A DNA stretch of 64,000 nucleotides from Eubacteriales bacterium. GTDB taxonomy: Bacteria; Bacillota; Clostridia; Oscillospirales; CAG-272. Below the pieces are notes generated by a model. The model was given only the letters and a program-made list of their open reading frames with translations. It did not search any database and had not been told where the DNA came from. Positions within the stretch are counted from its first letter, which is position 1. Each line of letters begins with the position of its first letter. The translations under genes were made by a program, and so were the position numbers. Location: the NCBI GenBank assembly GCA_045586225.1, contig JAZMZX010000128.1:95-64094 (forward strand), written 5' to 3'. Shown here in pieces: positions 48,254 through 55,965 of this stretch.

Positions 48254-48421
48254 GTATTCTCCGAAAAATCAAATAGTGTGATCCCTTTTGCTTAATGTTA
48301 TTTTACATTTTCCGCGCACCGGTGTCAAGGTGGGATAAAGACGAAAAAAGTATTTTAATCCGTGATAAAGTATGATACAATAATAAGGTAACGTATGTCC
48401 AGGAAGAAAGGAGGCCGAAAC

Positions 48422-51421
48422 GTGAAAAGGACGTCGGCAATGCTTGCCATATTCATATCACTCATTTTAATATCAGCGGCAACGGTCTGCGTTTTGGCTG
48501 AAAGCTCCGGCAGGGACAGCAGTCTCACCGTCGACAGTATGTCGTCTCCGCTTCTCTGGCGTGACACAGATTCCATTGTCAGCGGCACATCCGTTTCCAA
48601 GGAAGCATACAGCGACGAAAGCCACACCTCCCCCCTGGGAGAAGACGACAGCGGCTACACCTCGGTTTCGCGTCCGGGAGCGCTTTCGGGCGAGTCTGCC
48701 TCCATAAAGCGCACCTTTGAAGAAAGCATAAACCTTTACGGCAAAAGCGAGCTTTCATTCGACTTTTTCGCCGCCGCGCCCGAAATGGGTGCCTCCGGCA
48801 TTTCATACACCCTCACCGTCACCCTCTTTTCCGACGGCGAGGAATACGCAGCCCACTTCCCCGCGAGCCTCGGTCAGTGGCAGAAGGTGTCTCTCCCCCT
48901 TGAAGACTGGAGCAGATACACCAAGCTCACCGCCATCGCCATTTCCCTCTCCGTGGACATAATGGGAGAGCGCACCGCCGACATCTCTTATTCCGTCGAC
49001 AACATCATCGCCTCCGGCACGGCGGACACAAGCTTTGAGGATACCTTTCTCAGCCGCAGCTTCGAGGCAACGGGCGCTCATCTTTTCACAAGCGACGCCC
49101 ACGGCACCCTCACCCTGAGGCACACCGCCTCCGCCTCCGTCACAGGCTTTGCAAGCTTCCGCGACCGCGGCGCCCTGAAGGACCACAACACTTTGCGAAT
49201 GGTGCTCACCACAGACGGCGCCGTGAATATTAAGCTTTTGGTTTCGCATTCCGACGGGGAGGCCTTCATCGGTGACACCGTCACCGTTTCCGCATCCACG
49301 CCCCGAGCCTTCTATTTCGAATTCCCCCGGGCATCGACGGCGGAAGCCTTTACGCTCCTTATCACGAGCGAAAAAACGGGTACCGTCGTATTTTACGGCA
49401 TCGACACCCTCTATATGCCCCCGGAGGAAGACGGCGGCGGTCAGGCTGAGGAGCTGGGCAGCCTGTCCGAATGCACCGTCGACAGCACGGGAAGCGTTAA
49501 TCTCCGCGGGACCGTTACGACAGATACAGTCGTGAATCACTATAACGGACTCCTTGCCGTTTACGCCGTCCCCTTCTACGAAGACGCAGAGCGATACATT
49601 ATCTCATCATCTCCGCTCGCAGTGATGGCGATGACAACGAGATTCAACGTCACCATTCCCGAATTCACCCTCCCCGACGGCTTTGCGGCACACCGCTACG
49701 TTGTTGCCATCGAGGAAAACGGCGAAAAGCTCATCATAGACGAGCCCCGCCTTCCTTCATCGGACGGAGCGGGCGCCATCGTGCCCATCAGAGCAAAGAG
49801 CCTGAAGGGCATCGCATACCACAGTCTGAAGGCCGGTCAGTCCGCCGCGCTTACGGAGATAGAGGTGAACCTTTCCGAACTTGCGGGAAGCCCCTCCACA
49901 GGCAGAATGTACTCTGCCTTCGGCAAGCTCTTCTATTTCAATTCAGAATATCTGAAAAAGCTCGATGCAAAGATCAGATCTCTTTCCCTGTCGGGGACCG
50001 ACGTTTATCTCCGTCTGACGAAAAGCACCGTGACAGAGGATGGCAGAAAGCAATATGAGGCCGTCACTGCAGATACAAAGGAGCAGTTTGAAGACCTTTA
50101 TGCGGCCGTGGACTTCATCACTCAGCACTATTCCTCCGGCGACTACGGCTACGTCAGCGGAATGATCGCAGGACACACCTCGGGCGACCTGAGGCTTGAC
50201 ACGTCTCCTGCCGCAATAGCCTCGTCCATGGTAAACACCGCTGCCGTCGTTTACGGTGCAGGCATGTCAAACATAAACGATTTCCGCGTGATGCTCCCCT
50301 TTGGCGACACCTTCGTTTCCACACGTCCCGAAGAGGATGCCGGCGCTGAGCTTCTTCTGCGCCTCACAGCCCACTACGCGGAGCGCGCGGGTCTCGTTTC
50401 ATACGGCATCATCTGGCAATCGGACAAGCCGGAGTCGGACGCCCCCTTCTCCCTCGGGCTCGACGGCTCGAACACACTCAAGCAGTATCTGAACACCCTT
50501 TCGGGAACTCTTCCTTCATTCATCTTTATGGAATACACCCCCGAATCCAAATACTGCAGCACCGACATCTCTATTCTGGAGAATTATCTTGAGGCCTATT
50601 ACCTCGTCTGCGATTCCCTTTCCGTTTCGGGATTCATTTATAATCTGGACATTCCCGTGCGTGACGAAATGTGGCTTTCCTTCATTCGATATTTTGCCCT
50701 TATCGACACAGACCGATATAAGGACGCAGAGGAATACGTTGCCGCTCATTCAGCGGACGGCAAGTCTCCGACGGTTTCCGACGGTGCCGCCGGCAGAGCA
50801 CATCCCTACTGCACGATCGAGACCCCTCCCGCCCTTTCACCTCCCGGTGCAATAATCGGAAGCTACAAGCTTTTCGACTACACAGAATCCTTCGACACGG
50901 GCGGATGGTTCGCGCTGGACCCTGCAGGTGAATGCTTCACCGTTAAATCGGGAACGTCACGTATGCTCCGCGCACTTGGAAGCGGAATAATGTACTCCTG
51001 CGCTTCGTCTCCTCTGGACCTTTCCGTTTCGCCCATCATTTCCGTTGACCTGCCCTCAGCCGAGAATGGAGAATATGAGCTGATCGTTTTCTCAGACGGC
51101 GGAAGCATACGCACCGCCTTCACCTCATACGGCGCCGCCACCGTGTACGTTGACATATCCGCGCTCCCCGGGTCTGATGCCGTAACGGGCATTATGCTCC
51201 TTTCAAAGGACGGCTCATCCCGTGAGATATTCGTCAGATCGATCTCCGTTCACAGCACCGCCTTAACGGGCGAGGAGCTCAGCGCCCTTTATCTTGCCGA
51301 GGGTCCCTCCGAAAGCAAGCTGGAGGAGGAGACAAATGTCATCGAGATAGTTGCCGTTATCTTTTCAGCCATCGTGCTTTCCGCAGCGGCATTTTCGCTG
51401 ATAAAGCGATTCGACAAATAA
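48422..51421 (+). CDS. ~1000-aa extracytoplasmic protein of unknown function with N-terminal signal/anchor and C-terminal TM anchor
   Basis: AGGAGG lies 7 nt before GTG 48422 (tracked ATG 48395 is less likely). N-terminus KRTSAMLAIFISLILISAATVCVLA; C-terminus IEIVAVIFSAIVLSAAAFSLIKRFDK. No family recognised. Confidence 0.6.
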   Translation: MKRTSAMLAIFISLILISAATVCVLAESSGRDSSLTVDSMSSPLLWRDTDSIVSGTSVSKEAYSDESHTSPLGEDDSGYTSVSRPGALSGESASIKRTFEESINLYGKSELSFDFFAAAPEMGASGISYTLTVTLFSDGEEYAAHFPASLGQWQKVSLPLEDWSRYTKLTAIAISLSVDIMGERTADISYSVDNIIASGTADTSFEDTFLSRSFEATGAHLFTSDAHGTLTLRHTASASVTGFASFRDRGALKDHNTLRMVLTTDGAVNIKLLVSHSDGEAFIGDTVTVSASTPRAFYFEFPRASTAEAFTLLITSEKTGTVVFYGIDTLYMPPEEDGGGQAEELGSLSECTVDSTGSVNLRGTVTTDTVVNHYNGLLAVYAVPFYEDAERYIISSSPLAVMAMTTRFNVTIPEFTLPDGFAAHRYVVAIEENGEKLIIDEPRLPSSDGAGAIVPIRAKSLKGIAYHSLKAGQSAALTEIEVNLSELAGSPSTGRMYSAFGKLFYFNSEYLKKLDAKIRSLSLSGTDVYLRLTKSTVTEDGRKQYEAVTADTKEQFEDLYAAVDFITQHYSSGDYGYVSGMIAGHTSGDLRLDTSPAAIASSMVNTAAVVYGAGMSNINDFRVMLPFGDTFVSTRPEEDAGAELLLRLTAHYAERAGLVSYGIIWQSDKPESDAPFSLGLDGSNTLKQYLNTLSGTLPSFIFMEYTPESKYCSTDISILENYLEAYYLVCDSLSVSGFIYNLDIPVRDEMWLSFIRYFALIDTDRYKDAEEYVAAHSADGKSPTVSDGAAGRAHPYCTIETPPALSPPGAIIGSYKLFDYTESFDTGGWFALDPAGECFTVKSGTSRMLRALGSGIMYSCASSPLDLSVSPIISVDLPSAENGEYELIVFSDGGSIRTAFTSYGAATVYVDISALPGSDAVTGIMLLSKDGSSREIFVRSISVHSTALTGEELSALYLAEGPSESKLEEETNVIEIVAVIFSAIVLSAAAFSLIKRFDK

Positions 51422-51469: not shown

Positions 51470-52765
51470 TTATTCTTCTTCCTCATCGGAGGTAAGCTTC
51501 TGTACGGTCACCTCGTTCACTCCCTTTTCATCGGAGGCAACGACGGTGAAAACGTATTTTTCATATTCGAGAGTCTCACCCGCTAAGGGTATCTGACCGA
51601 TGGTCTCTATCAACCATCCGTTCAGCGTGGTGGATTCACCTTCGAATTCTATCTTAAGAAGCCTTGCGATTCGGGAAAGCTCCGTAAGTCCGCGAAGCTT
51701 GTATCCGTCGTCGAGGCGAACGATATCGTCGGATATCCATTCATATTCGCCGAGAAGGCACTTGATAAGGTCGCTCATGGTGACGATACCGTCGGTGCCG
51801 CCGAATTCATCCACAACGACTGCGAATCTCAGCTTTTCTTCCTTCATGTGATTGAAAATATCGCTTGCCTTTGCATAGGAGGAGATAAAGCAGGGCTTGC
51901 TCACGGCCTCGTCCAGCACACGCTCCTTGGTCACATCACCGCGCAGCGTAAGATACTTCTTGACGTCCAGAACGCCCAGAATGTTATCTGCGTTTTCGGC
52001 GTAGATGGGATAATAGTCATGGACCTTCTCCCCGATAGTGTCGCGCCAATCGTCGAGGGTGTCGTCTATCTGAAGCATAGCCACCTCCTTGCGGTGCACC
52101 ATGGCTTCGCTGACGGAAAGCTCGCCAAATTCAAACACGTTCTGAATGATATTGTTCTCCTCGGCATCGATAACGCCGCGCTCAGCGCCGATATCTGCCA
52201 TCATTCGGATCTCGTCCTCGGAAACGTTTTCTTCGGTTTCGGAGGGGTCAATGCCAAGAAGACGGAGAATGCCGTTTGTGGAGATGGTGAGAAGCCACAC
52301 AACGGGCGCGAAAACCTTCGAAATAAAGGTTACGGGGCCTGAAAGGCCGAGAGCCATGGCTTCGGATTTTCCCATTGCAAGGCGCTTCGGCACAAGCTCG
52401 CCGAAAACGAGGGTCACAAAGGAAAGGATAAGCGTAATAAGGACAACGGCAACAGCGTCAAGCGTTGCCTCGGAAACGGGGATGCCCGTGGACACCAGCC
52501 ATCTCACGATCGGATCGGAAAAATTGTCTGCCGCAAACGCACTTCCCAAAAATCCCGAAAGGGTTATGGCCACCTGAATGGTAGCAAGGAAACGCGCAGG
52601 CTCACGGGTCAGCTTGCGGAGACGCTTTGCACCGCGGCTGCCCTCGTCGCACATTCTCTCAAGCTTAGCCTCGCTGACGGAAAGCACTGCGATCTCAGCG
52701 CAGGCAAAAACAGCGTTCAAAAATATAAGTATTACTTGTAATAAAAGCGATTGCCACAAATTCAT
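51470..52765 (-). CDS. CNNM/HlyC-CorC family transporter (DUF21-CBS pair-CorC_HlyC)
   Basis: DUF21 N-terminus LLQVILIFLNAVFACAEIAVLSV, a CBS pair and a C-terminal CorC_HlyC-like domain. Confidence 0.85.
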   Translation of the reverse strand: MNLWQSLLLQVILIFLNAVFACAEIAVLSVSEAKLERMCDEGSRGAKRLRKLTREPARFLATIQVAITLSGFLGSAFAADNFSDPIVRWLVSTGIPVSEATLDAVAVVLITLILSFVTLVFGELVPKRLAMGKSEAMALGLSGPVTFISKVFAPVVWLLTISTNGILRLLGIDPSETEENVSEDEIRMMADIGAERGVIDAEENNIIQNVFEFGELSVSEAMVHRKEVAMLQIDDTLDDWRDTIGEKVHDYYPIYAENADNILGVLDVKKYLTLRGDVTKERVLDEAVSKPCFISSYAKASDIFNHMKEEKLRFAVVVDEFGGTDGIVTMSDLIKCLLGEYEWISDDIVRLDDGYKLRGLTELSRIARLLKIEFEGESTTLNGWLIETIGQIPLAGETLEYEKYVFTVVASDEKGVNEVTVQKLTSDEEEE

Positions 52766-52943
52766 ATAAGTTCACTCCCAATTCAATAATAAAGATTCCG
52801 TTTTTGGTTCAGGCTCAGAGCCGGAGCACGTAAACCCATCGGGAGCGATAAACTGCGGTACTGTTCGGGTCCTGGGATGAATCGCCGGGACAACTGTCCG
52901 TATTCATTAAATATGATCCTCACTTTCGGATGATATATACTGA
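52766..52943 (-). promoter_or_regulatory. ~180-nt structured 5' leader with anti-Shine-Dalgarno element (unclassified cis-regulator candidate)
   Basis: The leader runs from the predicted TSS to ATG 52765. The RNA segment CGCUCCCGAU (plus-strand coordinates 52838-52847) can pair with AUUGGGAGUG, which covers the SD (52773-52782). Several local hairpins. Confidence 0.4.
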
Positions 52944-52949
52944 ATTTGA

Positions 52950-52978
52950 ATTGTACCAAAAAGTCGAAAAAAAATCAA
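52950..52978 (-). promoter_or_regulatory. Candidate sigma-A promoter of the CNNM gene
   Basis: On the minus strand: TTGATT (52978-52973), 17-nt spacer, TACAAT (52955-52950). Confidence 0.6.
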
Positions 52979-53005
52979 CACATATTCAGAAAACAACTGA
53001 ATAAT

Positions 53006-53038
53006 TTAAAAAACGGAGCATTACGGCTCCGTTTTTTA
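53006..53038. terminator. Intrinsic terminator downstream of the zinc-ribbon gene
   Basis: Stem acggagc / gctccgt flanked by aaaaaa and tttttt. Confidence 0.7.
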
Positions 53039-53044
53039 AATTGA

Positions 53045-53413
53045 TTATTCCTCAAAGGTGAACTTCTTTCCGCAGTGGTTGCAGTAGAAGCTTTCCTCGT
53101 CCACTTCCTCGCCGCAGGCATCGCAAAGGAGCTTGTGCTTTGCAGAGGCAAGCGTCAGGCGGTAGCCCTTGATCTCCTCGGTGAGCTCCGCTACGTCTGC
53201 CATAAGATCGCTGATAGCTTCGGTGGTGTCTGCCCCCTCCATTACTGCCGTGTAGTAAAGGCGGCCAATGCCCTCATAGGTGCAGGAAAGCTTTGTTTCC
53301 GCAAGATAAAGCTTATACTTCACCTTAGCGGCATTTTTGATCTCGCCTGCTTTTTTCACGGTATAGCTTGCCGCGTCGGTCGCGGTCTTCGTTACGTCGT
53401 CCCAGAATCTCAT
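53045..53413 (-). CDS. Zinc-ribbon domain protein
   Basis: 122 aa: helical N-part plus CDACGEEVDEESFYCNHCG. RBS ggagg. Confidence 0.55.
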   Translation of the reverse strand: MRFWDDVTKTATDAASYTVKKAGEIKNAAKVKYKLYLAETKLSCTYEGIGRLYYTAVMEGADTTEAISDLMADVAELTEEIKGYRLTLASAKHKLLCDACGEEVDEESFYCNHCGKKFTFEE

Positions 53414-54048: not shown

Positions 54049-55965
54049 TCATTTATTATAAAAATCAATAAGGACATCCTCGGGCATAGGACGTGCAAGA
54101 GCATAGCCCTGAACGCGGTCCACACCGTTTGCCTTCAGCGCCTCGACCTCAGCCATAGTCTCTGCACCCTCCGCTATGACCTCGAAGCCCATCTCGTGGA
54201 AAAGCTTCGTCAGCGTACGCGCTGCGGAATAGGTGTCGCTGCCCTCGCGGGCTGGACGCACAAGGCAGGTGTCAAGCTTGATAAGCTGGAAGGGCAGCTG
54301 AAGAAGACAGTTGAAATTGGAATAACCTGCGCCAAAATCGTCCAGGAAGAAGCGGTATCCGTCCTCCTTCAGGCTCTCCATCACGCTTTGTGTCTGCTCA
54401 AAGGTGTCGAGTATCGCACGCTCCGTAAATTCAATACAGATGCGGTTATGAGCAATGCCGGCTCTGTCCACGATGCTGTTCAGCCTTGTGATGAAGCCCT
54501 TATCAAGAAGCTGAGCCATGGGCACGTTCACGGAAACACTGACGGAATCGAGCTCGCGGCGGCGGCGAAGCACGTCGCACACCTCTTCAACCACGAACCA
54601 GGTGATGGGAGCGATGCAGCCCGTTTCCTCTGCAAGGGGGATGAACTCTCCGGGGCTTATCATGCTTCCGTCGGGCTCGCGCAGACGTATCAGCGCCTCC
54701 ATTGAGCAGAATCTGCAGGTGGAGATGCACTGCACCGGCTGGAACCAGACCTCGTAGCCGTGTGCCTTGTCCACGTGCCTCAGGCGCTCCGTGAGATAGC
54801 GGCTGCGGATAAGGTCCTTGCCGATATCATCTGTATACCGTATGTAGCTGAGCTTTTCATTATATGCACGGGAAGCGGCGTATTCAAGCTTTTCGTAAAA
54901 GTCTGCCGCGCTCTTTTCCGTCTCATCAACGGCATATTCAACGTCCACGTACTGCAGCGTCACGTGCTGCCGCATACACCAGATGCCGTTATCAAGGAAA
55001 TAAAGCAGCTCTCCTGTGCGCTTCTCCGCATCGGATTCGGAAAGCGAAGGCATAATGAGCGAGAACACAGTGCCGTTCATATGGAATGCCACCGTATCCT
55101 TAAAGAGCCTTTCAAGTGAGAACGCAAACTGATAAAGAAGCTCGTCGCCGTACATGTGGCCGTATTTGCGGTTTACAGCGCCGAAACCCTTCACGTTGAT
55201 AAGATGAACGCAGAAGCGCTCCTTTGCGTTTATGCGGCGCTCGATCTCCTTGAAGAAGCGGTGTCGGTCGTTAAGATTCGTAAGGGAGTGGATACCCTGG
55301 CGCTGCCCCTGGAAGGAAAGGAAAAGCACCGTATCCACCATAGACATAATAAAGCCGTTGAGCATGATAGCGGGATATATCCGCTGGATTATGATGCACA
55401 TAACGACAACGGGGAACGTCATAAGAAGCACGCGCTTCATGGAGCGGCTCGCCATCTTGCTGTTTCTTGCATAGCAAATGATAACGAGCACCATCTGACA
55501 TATGGTGGCTAAGTATCCGATGGCATTCAAGGGACCGCGGATGTATTTGCCCTCTTCATTGAAGGAGAAGAGCCATCCTGTCCAAAGGTTCAGAATTACG
55601 ATAAGGATATAAACGCAGAAGATCGCCACGAGGCCTCTTACTGCGTTTTTCATACAGTGGTGGCTGTCGTGAGAATGCTCGAGGATCTTTGTAAAGAGGA
55701 AAAGACCGATAAAGGACGTTGTGACGAGATTCACCACGAAATAGAGGGAATTCGCAAGAACGTGCAGCTCTATCCACATTGGTTCAAGCTCCATCAGCAC
55801 GATGGAAGCGATGTCGATAGCGGACGTAAGTGCCGTGCATATCAGCCCGGCAATAAAATACTTGCTTGATAAGGATGTATAGTGAGGGCGCGCCTTGCCT
55901 TCAAAAAAGAAGAGAAACAGGACCAGCACAAGTCCTATTGCAAAACAGTCTCCTACGTAGATCAT
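54049..55965 (-). CDS. Membrane sensor protein with degenerate GGDEF and intact EAL domain (c-di-GMP phosphodiesterase candidate)
   Basis: About 6-7 N-terminal helices. The GGDEF-fold has AVNRKYGHMYGDELL, but NGTVF sits where GGDEF is expected. EAL motifs MEALIRL, EFTERA and DDFGAGYSNF. Confidence 0.75.
   Translation of the reverse strand: MIYVGDCFAIGLVLVLFLFFFEGKARPHYTSLSSKYFIAGLICTALTSAIDIASIVLMELEPMWIELHVLANSLYFVVNLVTTSFIGLFLFTKILEHSHDSHHCMKNAVRGLVAIFCVYILIVILNLWTGWLFSFNEEGKYIRGPLNAIGYLATICQMVLVIICYARNSKMASRSMKRVLLMTFPVVVMCIIIQRIYPAIMLNGFIMSMVDTVLFLSFQGQRQGIHSLTNLNDRHRFFKEIERRINAKERFCVHLINVKGFGAVNRKYGHMYGDELLYQFAFSLERLFKDTVAFHMNGTVFSLIMPSLSESDAEKRTGELLYFLDNGIWCMRQHVTLQYVDVEYAVDETEKSAADFYEKLEYAASRAYNEKLSYIRYTDDIGKDLIRSRYLTERLRHVDKAHGYEVWFQPVQCISTCRFCSMEALIRLREPDGSMISPGEFIPLAEETGCIAPITWFVVEEVCDVLRRRRELDSVSVSVNVPMAQLLDKGFITRLNSIVDRAGIAHNRICIEFTERAILDTFEQTQSVMESLKEDGYRFFLDDFGAGYSNFNCLLQLPFQLIKLDTCLVRPAREGSDTYSAARTLTKLFHEMGFEVIAEGAETMAEVEALKANGVDRVQGYALARPMPEDVLIDFYNK

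Follow-up and report, generated by a model that had tools for sequence, protein, structure and literature searches.

Short open reading frames (ORFs) in the leaders of bacterial genes can decide, through the progress of the ribosome, whether the gene behind them is expressed, and those described for cation-transport genes are the closest counterparts of the element analysed here. This element is the leader of a CNNM/CorC-type transporter gene on the minus strand of contig JAZMZX010000128.1 from a Eubacteriales bacterium, and it lies within a stretch of 64,000 nucleotides that we refer to as the window. In the leader peptide MgtL, aspartate, glutamate and proline (D/E/P) together with small residues directly follow the initiator methionine, and a basic/hydrophobic tail comes after them. 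In the pyrBI leader (pyrL) of E. coli, a ribosome moving close behind the polymerase blocks the terminator hairpin, and the event sensed is UTP-dependent pausing of the polymerase. According to the rule of intrinsic ribosome destabilisation (IRD), D/E/P and small residues placed right after the Met make the ribosome abort translation, more strongly at low Mg2+, and the effect is gone when at least 30 residues precede the motif (10.1101/2021.02.02.429294). MgtL is a programmed example of IRD, which induces the Mg2+ importer MgtA (10.1101/2021.02.02.429294; PMC12421838). The E. coli corC/ybeX gene carries an IRD sequence at its own N-terminus, and its synthesis has been proposed to rise at high Mg2+ (10.1101/2021.02.02.429294; PMC12421838). 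In addition, translation of the leader ORF YoaL promotes yoaE (mgpA), which encodes a TerC-CorC cation-stress protein of E. coli and Salmonella (PMC12421838). According to the Salmonella study of 2025, it is unclear how mgpA and corC are regulated (PMC12421838), and the way in which bacteria sense an excess of Mg2+ or other cations and control their CNNM/CorC-type exporters is largely an open question.

The CNNM leader of the window contains an upstream ORF (uORF) of 30 codons, which runs from the ATG at 52907 to the TGA at 52817-52815 (52815-52907, minus strand, as for all leader features below) and encodes MNTDSCPGDSSQDPNSTAVYRSRWVYVLRL. The uORF has its own Shine-Dalgarno (SD) sequence, read as GAGGA at 52917-52921, 9 nt before the ATG. 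The initial annotation of this DNA had described the leader as containing no ORF, which is wrong. The uORF fills most of the leader, and its ATG is located about 35 nt after the predicted transcription start. Two modules stand out in the encoded peptide. The N-terminal module, NTDSCPGDSSQDP, covers codons 2-14 (52866-52904) and consists only of Asp, Pro and small residues. The C-terminal module is Leu-Arg-Leu-stop (CTC CGG CTC TGA, 52815-52826), with Arg as the second-to-last residue. Within codons 21-24 lies the anti-SD sequence CGCUCCCGAU (52838-52847), whose partner AUUGGGAGUG (52773-52782) is the SD of the CNNM gene; the duplex between them is found both in the minimum-free-energy (MFE) fold and in a separate duplex computation. 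Judged from comparative sequence data, the existence of the leader ORF, its conservation at the peptide level and its coupling to an expression platform, either a terminator or a sequestered SD, appear well supported.

Homologous loci, given here by L numbers, were obtained from a genome scan (7 loci) and a metagenome scan (80 loci), with CNNM identities of 39-92%. We searched the 350 nt before each CNNM start with a strict acidic-start rule, which accepts ORFs of 12-75 codons that have at least two D/E in residues 2-8 and in which residues 2-7 are limited to D, E, S, T, G, A, N, C, P and Q. Of 85 loci, 72 have such an ORF on the sense strand and none has one on the antisense strand; shuffled sequences give 2.65 of 85. 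When an SD is required as well, the rule gives 53 matches in 29.6 kb of leaders and 5 in 680 kb elsewhere. Manual curation removed doubtful matches inside the upstream gene and added less acidic peptides of the window type. After curation, 66 of the 85 loci carry a leader ORF at the corresponding position before CNNM. Their leaders comprise 50 distinct nucleotide versions, and eight further look-ups of closer homologues completed the subfamily of the window, bringing the collection to 56 distinct peptides. The leader ORFs range from 15 to 66 codons and start with ATG, GTG or TTG. An SD core is found before 45 of the 50 distinct leader ORFs and before 16% of control ATGs. The leader AUG of the L013 group is itself located within a small hairpin.

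Public databases list some of these peptides as 'hypothetical protein', among them entries from Clostridium sp., Christensenellaceae, Lachnospiraceae and Anaerosporobacter mobilis DSM 15930, and one listed peptide is present on 408 contigs. No Pfam match was obtained for eight leader peptides at E <= 10. A leader of riboswitch size that seems free of ORFs can in this way conceal a regulatory ORF of 30 codons, which gene callers miss or label 'hypothetical protein'.

The window belongs to a subfamily of eight leaders, whose CNNM proteins are about 70-92% identical to that of the window. In all eight the uORF is exactly 30 codons long, and the peptides align without gaps. Ten residues are invariant (M1, D4, C6, D9, S10, S11, D13, P14, S16 and R29), whereas the codons that specify them vary: D9 and D13 are encoded by GAC or GAT, S10 by TCA or TCT, S11 by TCC or TCT, and R29 by AGG, CGC, CGG or CGT. 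Beyond the subfamily, the segment DSCP is written GAC AGT TGT CCY in the window, L053 and L079, and GAC TCT TGC CCT in L012, L013, L042 and L061. Residues are thus kept across synonymous as well as codon-family changes, which argues that selection acts on the encoded peptide.

The 56 distinct peptides share a characteristic composition at both ends. Residues 2-11 contain a median of 4 D/E/P, with at least 4 in 37 of the 56. The net charge per residue is -0.29 in this segment vs +0.11 in the remainder, and the mean residue volume is 107 Å3 vs 147 Å3. The composition on which IRD depends, D/E/P with small residues in the ten or so positions after Met, is found across the family, and the peptide of the window lies at its borderline. 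At the opposite end, Arg occupies position -2 in 34 of the 56 peptides and is specified by all six Arg codons, position -3 is L, F, M or Y in 37, and all three stop codons occur. The second-to-last Arg suggests a peptide-dependent event at the termination of translation.

The uORF is closely associated with one of two expression platforms. In 38 of the 50 distinct leaders from the two scans, a strong intrinsic terminator (ΔG -15 to -33 kcal/mol, followed by a U-run) is present. Its start lies a median of 63.5 nt after the start codon of the uORF, irrespective of uORF length. In 37 of these 38 leaders the frame of the uORF stays open to 8 nt or less from the terminator stem; the remaining frames do so in 21 and 6 of the leaders. 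The stop codon is located at or just before the stem base in 17 leaders, inside the hairpin in 14 and beyond it in 7; in 16 of the 17 stem-base leaders, the end of the stop lies no more than 6 nt before or 3 nt after the first base of the stem. A search for an RNA antiterminator found the complementarity between the upstream leader and the terminator arms to be at chance relative to shuffles (mean z of +0.28 and -0.42 for the 5' and 3' arms, respectively). Since no RNA antiterminator was found, the ribosome is the only candidate for this role, and the default state would be termination. The 5' arm of the terminator carries the motif G[GA]CAU[GA]AYCUG, with its complement before the U-run, in L008, L013, L037, L059, L081, L084, L085 and others. 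This motif persists regardless of whether it is read in one frame, read in another or located after the stop, and may reflect either conservation at the RNA level or plain shared descent.

The window, L001 and their relatives have no such terminator, and the SD of the CNNM gene pairs with the 3' part of the uORF instead. Both points agree with the initial annotation, which had reported the anti-SD pairing and the absence of a terminator before the start codon: the terminator scan calls none in the window leader, and the duplex is computed at -18.0 kcal/mol, a value equalled or bettered by 13 of 1000 dinucleotide shuffles. The corresponding counts per 1000 are 9 in L001, where the anti-SD sequence is identical, 21 in L093 and a marginal 50 in L089. 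Moreover, all eight subfamily leaders have CUCC at uORF nt 61-66, though it is read as R-S in one half of them and as L-R in the other. By this measure the anti-SD is conserved as RNA, unlike the peptide modules. At the position that the terminator holds in the relatives, the window has a weak irregular hairpin (52798-52842, about -13.7 kcal/mol) followed by AAUCUUUAUUAUU, which was found in a separate hairpin scan and is not called by the terminator scan; it may be a degenerate remnant. Taken together, the SD-sequestration platform of the subfamily is supported but not strongly.

The ORF, the conservation of its peptide, the two platforms and their geometry are seen directly. Three features that mark a leader-peptide attenuator are found here, namely an ORF conserved in position together with its SD and start codon, selection on the peptide, and a platform overlapped by the ORF. 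In our reading, the leader is a uORF control element and not an aptamer, and it acts as an MgtL-like sensor of the IRD type, responding to cations or ribosome stability with inverted logic; we give this composite about an even chance of being correct. We infer that the uORF is translated, that translation can abort in its N-terminal part, and that a cation, either Mg2+ or a polyamine, serves as the signal. By default, the CNNM SD of the window subfamily would be paired with uORF codons 21-24 and the transporter would be OFF, and in most relatives the intrinsic terminator would form by default instead, with the gene OFF as well. A ribosome that finishes the uORF (through codons 20-24) would melt the pairing or occupy the 5' arm of the terminator, turning the gene ON. 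Both platforms lead to the same prediction, namely that completed translation of the uORF turns the gene ON.

In this mechanism, the Asp/Glu/Pro and small residues at the N-terminus would set the share of ribosomes that reach the end of the uORF. When the ribosome-stabilising cation is low, ribosomes would abort in codons 2-10, the terminator or the anti-SD helix would stay in place, and the gene would remain OFF. When the cation (Mg2+, possibly polyamines) is high, the uORF would be translated in full and the CNNM exporter would be made. As the gene is of the exporter type, the inverse of the sign known from MgtL/mgtA is expected. The hydrophobic-Arg-x-stop end probably prolongs or tunes the dwell of the ribosome at the stop codon. 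A further, more tentative proposal is that the leaders of gut Clostridia form a large class of so far undescribed two-module devices. In these, the acidic N-terminus would make the ribosome a sensor of cytoplasmic Mg2+ or polycations, through destabilisation or through direct binding of the cation by the Asp/Ser/Cys-rich nascent chain, and the hydrophobic-Arg-x-stop end would park the surviving ribosomes on the terminator or beside the anti-SD. We regard this as possible, with the balance somewhat against it.

Compared with the known systems, the leader shares with MgtL/mgtA a short ORF that precedes a gene for Mg2+ transport and the principle that ribosome progress decides the fate of the downstream gene. 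The resemblance to MgtL is compositional only. Several differences are found between the two. The gene of the present family is of the exporter type, so complete translation corresponds to ON. The MgtL platform involves Rho-dependent termination or alternative stem-loops together with a Mg2+-sensing RNA, whereas an intrinsic terminator or SD sequestration is used here. Moreover, MgtL belongs to Enterobacteria and the present family to Clostridia, and no MgtL counterpart has been described for the conserved second-to-last Arg. The E. coli ybeX/corC gene is similar in that it encodes a CorC-domain protein and has an IRD-type sequence right after its start codon, but there the sequence is part of the protein itself, whereas here it resides in a separate leader ORF tied to the gene via RNA structure. 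With pyrBI, the family shares the absence of an RNA antiterminator and a leader ORF that ends at or inside the terminator, so that the ribosome blocks the hairpin; it differs in its conserved N-terminal peptide module and in the translational (anti-SD) version used by the window. By sequence the leader family appears to belong to neither the MgtL/mgtA nor the pyrBI system, though it is predicted to work like both.

The leader also resembles the M-box (Mg2+), yybP-ykoY (Mn2+) and NiCo elements, which are cis-regulatory leaders of metal-transporter genes with terminator or SD-sequestering platforms. In those elements an RNA aptamer does the sensing, whereas the conserved unit here is a coding sequence. 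YoaL (L100, E. coli K-12 NC_000913.3 1901573-1901731) was considered as a homologue and rejected: its peptide is basic (MDRHRRHFSIRPF...), has 52 aa, overlaps the start of yoaE and shows no similarity. A literature search revealed no earlier account of acidic leaders that precede CNNM/CorC/MpfA genes in Firmicutes, only the IRD and YoaL cases of E. coli and Salmonella; coverage of this search is incomplete, and a prior description is possible. The family supplies about 50 natural variants of a compact element with two platforms and the same predicted logic, and includes a member from a cultured strain, Anaerosporobacter mobilis DSM 15930. If the two-module proposal is true, ribosome-based cation sensing, for which MgtL in Enterobacteria is so far the known case, would be general and phylogenetically widespread. 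Exporters would use it with the opposite sign, and its platforms would be interchangeable as in riboswitches.

Several observations weigh against the IRD-type sensor. IRD has been demonstrated with E. coli and eukaryotic ribosomes and not with those of Clostridia. The peptide of the window is among the least acidic of the family, with 3 Asp and 2 Pro in its first 14 residues; residues 2-11 include 3 D/E/P, and the best 10-residue window includes 4. The spacing between SD and start codon is unusually long, 12-16 nt, in most relatives (for example L013, L008, L044 and L081), compared with 9 nt in the window. The anti-SD pairing is modestly above chance in the window and at chance in L091 (63 of 1000 shuffles equal or better) and in L088, L094 and L002 (194-317). 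For the CNNM protein of the window no NCBIfam match reaches its cut-off, so the cation substrate is not assignable. Finally, 35 of the 54 Asp-Ser dicodons near the beginning of the leader peptides are GAC-AGT. The CNNM genes of these loci use it for 7 of 95, and AGT accounts for only 9% of their Ser codons. This preference points to an extra constraint at the nucleotide or codon level beyond the peptide, which our model does not explain; one idea is a slow, wobble-decoded codon just after the acidic run. Leaders with GAC-AGT include L008, L009, L041, L044-L047, L050, L053, L077-L083 and others, and the GACAGT of the window is located at 52898-52893.

The C-terminal module also fits a different reading, in which the uORF encodes a ligand-dependent arrest peptide. 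The ribosome would stall at the stop codon, as in TnaC, SpeFL, PepNL and the eukaryotic MAGDIS uORF, only when Mg2+, Co2+, a polyamine or another small molecule is present in the exit tunnel. The ligand would be bound perhaps by the Asp/Ser/Cys-rich N-terminus, and the parked ribosome would hold the terminator or the anti-SD helix open. The second-to-last Arg, which follows a hydrophobic residue and is conserved at the peptide level, is in line with previous results showing that the second-to-last residue is a key position in known termination-arrest peptides (PMC11890864). Such an arrest would agree with the location of the stop at or just before the stem base (17 of 38 leaders), the constant 30-codon length in the window subfamily and the frequent Cys beside Asp and Ser, as well as with the best NCBIfam match of the CNNM protein, the polyamine exporter PaeA, which is below its threshold. 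However, the family-wide length range of 15-66 codons leaves the N-terminus without a single fixed position in the tunnel at termination. Moreover, the Arg is missing from 22 of the 56 peptides, all three stop codons are in use, and the peptides show no homology to known arrest peptides. We regard an arrest peptide as unlikely.

The geometry in which translation turns the gene ON would work with any leader sequence, as expected if the uORF provided a signal-independent translational coupling or a 'translation health' gate, with no specific sensing role for the acidic start. Ribosome-mediated attenuators that answer translation stress are common in Firmicutes. Such a gate leaves unexplained, however, why the first ten or so residues are the most conserved part of 56 divergent peptides and match the IRD composition, and we consider it improbable.

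Amino-acid attenuation, as in the trp, his and thr leaders, would assign the sensing to the early Asp (GAC) and Ser (AGT) codons, which would report on charged tRNA-Asp and tRNA-Ser. An ORF is indeed combined with a terminator here, the first ten codons of 50 leaders contain 154 Asp codons, and the rare Ser codon AGT is preferred. Against these stands the position of the key codons, at 2-8 and at least 40 nt before the terminator, with no antiterminator for a stalled ribosome to favour, so that starvation would merely turn the gene off. In addition, Glu, Pro, Gly and Cys freely replace Asp and Ser, and a cation-transporter gene is unconnected to the metabolism of these amino acids. We consider this mechanism quite improbable.

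The initial annotation had interpreted the leader as a possible unclassified riboswitch or RNA ion sensor, a reading that would make the uORF incidental. The length of the leader and its transporter context are typical of riboswitches. Conservation at the nucleotide level is also found, in the GACAGU at the start of the ORF and in the G[GA]CAU[GA]AYCUG of the terminator 5' arm, and the anti-SD is kept as RNA rather than as peptide. The tests on RNA structure nevertheless argue against an aptamer. A search of Rfam 15 at the gathering level, with the M-box, yybP-ykoY, NiCo and leader families included, gave no match in the 64-kb window or in 20 related loci. This bears out the earlier remark that the leader fits neither the M-box nor the yybP-ykoY consensus. 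At E <= 10, the leader gives only chance-level matches far under the cut-offs. Its MFE is ordinary (z = -1.24, with 26 of 200 shuffles folding equally well). RNAalifold on the eight subfamily leaders gives -3.88 kcal/mol and 12 pairs, with no covarying aptamer helix and no conserved aptamer fold, and the sole pairing that it finds joins the CUCC motif with the SD of the uORF itself.

The individual helices proposed earlier are unconserved as well. The hairpin at 52911-52936, described as having 9 bp, is indeed part of the MFE structure, but is made of 4+4 bp that flank a C.C mismatch, with a GAAAGUGA loop and a 3' arm that overlaps the SD of the uORF; it is absent in L001, whose CNNM protein is 92% identical, and unconserved in the other relatives. 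The GGAC-AGUU-GUCC helix corresponds to uORF codons 4-7, and the GGCGAU/AUCGCU helix is disrupted in L001 by a synonymous change in the uORF (TAT to TAC). Inspection of the folds revealed no consistent pairing partner for the conserved GACAGU, and the spacer 3' of the uORF stop is unconserved in the subfamily. What is conserved is a block with an SD, a start codon (ATG, GTG or TTG in the relatives), an uninterrupted frame and residues that persist when the codon family changes. The proposal of a riboswitch or RNA ion sensor is accordingly unsupported, and we judge an aptamer very improbable. The broader part of the initial annotation holds up: the leader is probably a cis-regulatory element before a cation-transporter gene, and control in the window is predicted at the level of translation, through the anti-SD that had been spotted.

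Finally, a micro-protein with a function of its own, such as a transporter partner or regulator, would suit the conserved peptide and the members that databases call 'hypothetical protein', but is the least probable of the explanations, since the peptides vary in length (15-66 residues) and show no conservation between subfamilies in their middle and C-terminal parts, the ORF often extends through the terminator hairpin, and the peptides have no transmembrane-like segment and no Pfam match.

The gene served by the leader (51470-52765, minus strand) encodes a protein of 431 aa with the Pfam domains CNNM, CBS and CorC_HlyC, in agreement with its earlier assignment as CNNM/CorC-type. Its top NCBIfam match is the polyamine exporter PaeA, with 219 bits at a cut-off of 500, followed by GldE and CorC. 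An assignment of the transporter substrate from these families was rejected, since every match is below its cut-off. The ORF next downstream is convergent, so the CNNM gene is monocistronic. A consensus scan recovers the sigma-70-like promoter that had been proposed at 52978-52950, with the -35 element TTGATT (52978-52973), a 17-nt spacer and the -10 element TACAAT (52955-52950), and adds an extended -10 TG (52958-52957). The predicted transcription start at about 52943 gives a leader of about 180 nt up to the ATG at 52765, as the initial annotation had it. The layout of the -35 and -10 elements and their distance to the uORF are the same in L001, L088, L091, L089, L093 and L002.

Two groups of CNNM homologues show a different arrangement upstream of the gene. 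In L010 and L011 there is no acidic leader ORF; a good promoter is followed by a long G+C-rich leader with several predicted hairpins. No Rfam family matches this leader (about 250 nt upstream of the CNNM start), which may be a different, uncharacterised regulatory leader of the same gene family. In the L017 group (L017, L019, L020, L023, L025 and others), CNNM starts 16-26 nt after a gene whose product ends in ...AFLKNA, and looks operonic and leaderless. The ORF MSEAAEPSPTSC... of this group, which was caught by the strict rule, lies inside the upstream gene and was discarded.

Upstream of the leader, the window contains a zinc-ribbon-like gene of 122 aa (53045-53413, minus strand), and the terminator hairpin of this gene, found by the terminator scan at 53002-53043, forms the 5' limit of the unit. 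The surroundings are shared by close relatives, in which CNNM is flanked upstream by a gene for a zinc-ribbon-like small protein and downstream by a convergent gene for a DUF5722 protein of about 1000 aa (48395-51421, plus strand, in the window). Farther upstream in the window, a GGDEF-EAL protein is encoded at 54049-55965 (minus strand).

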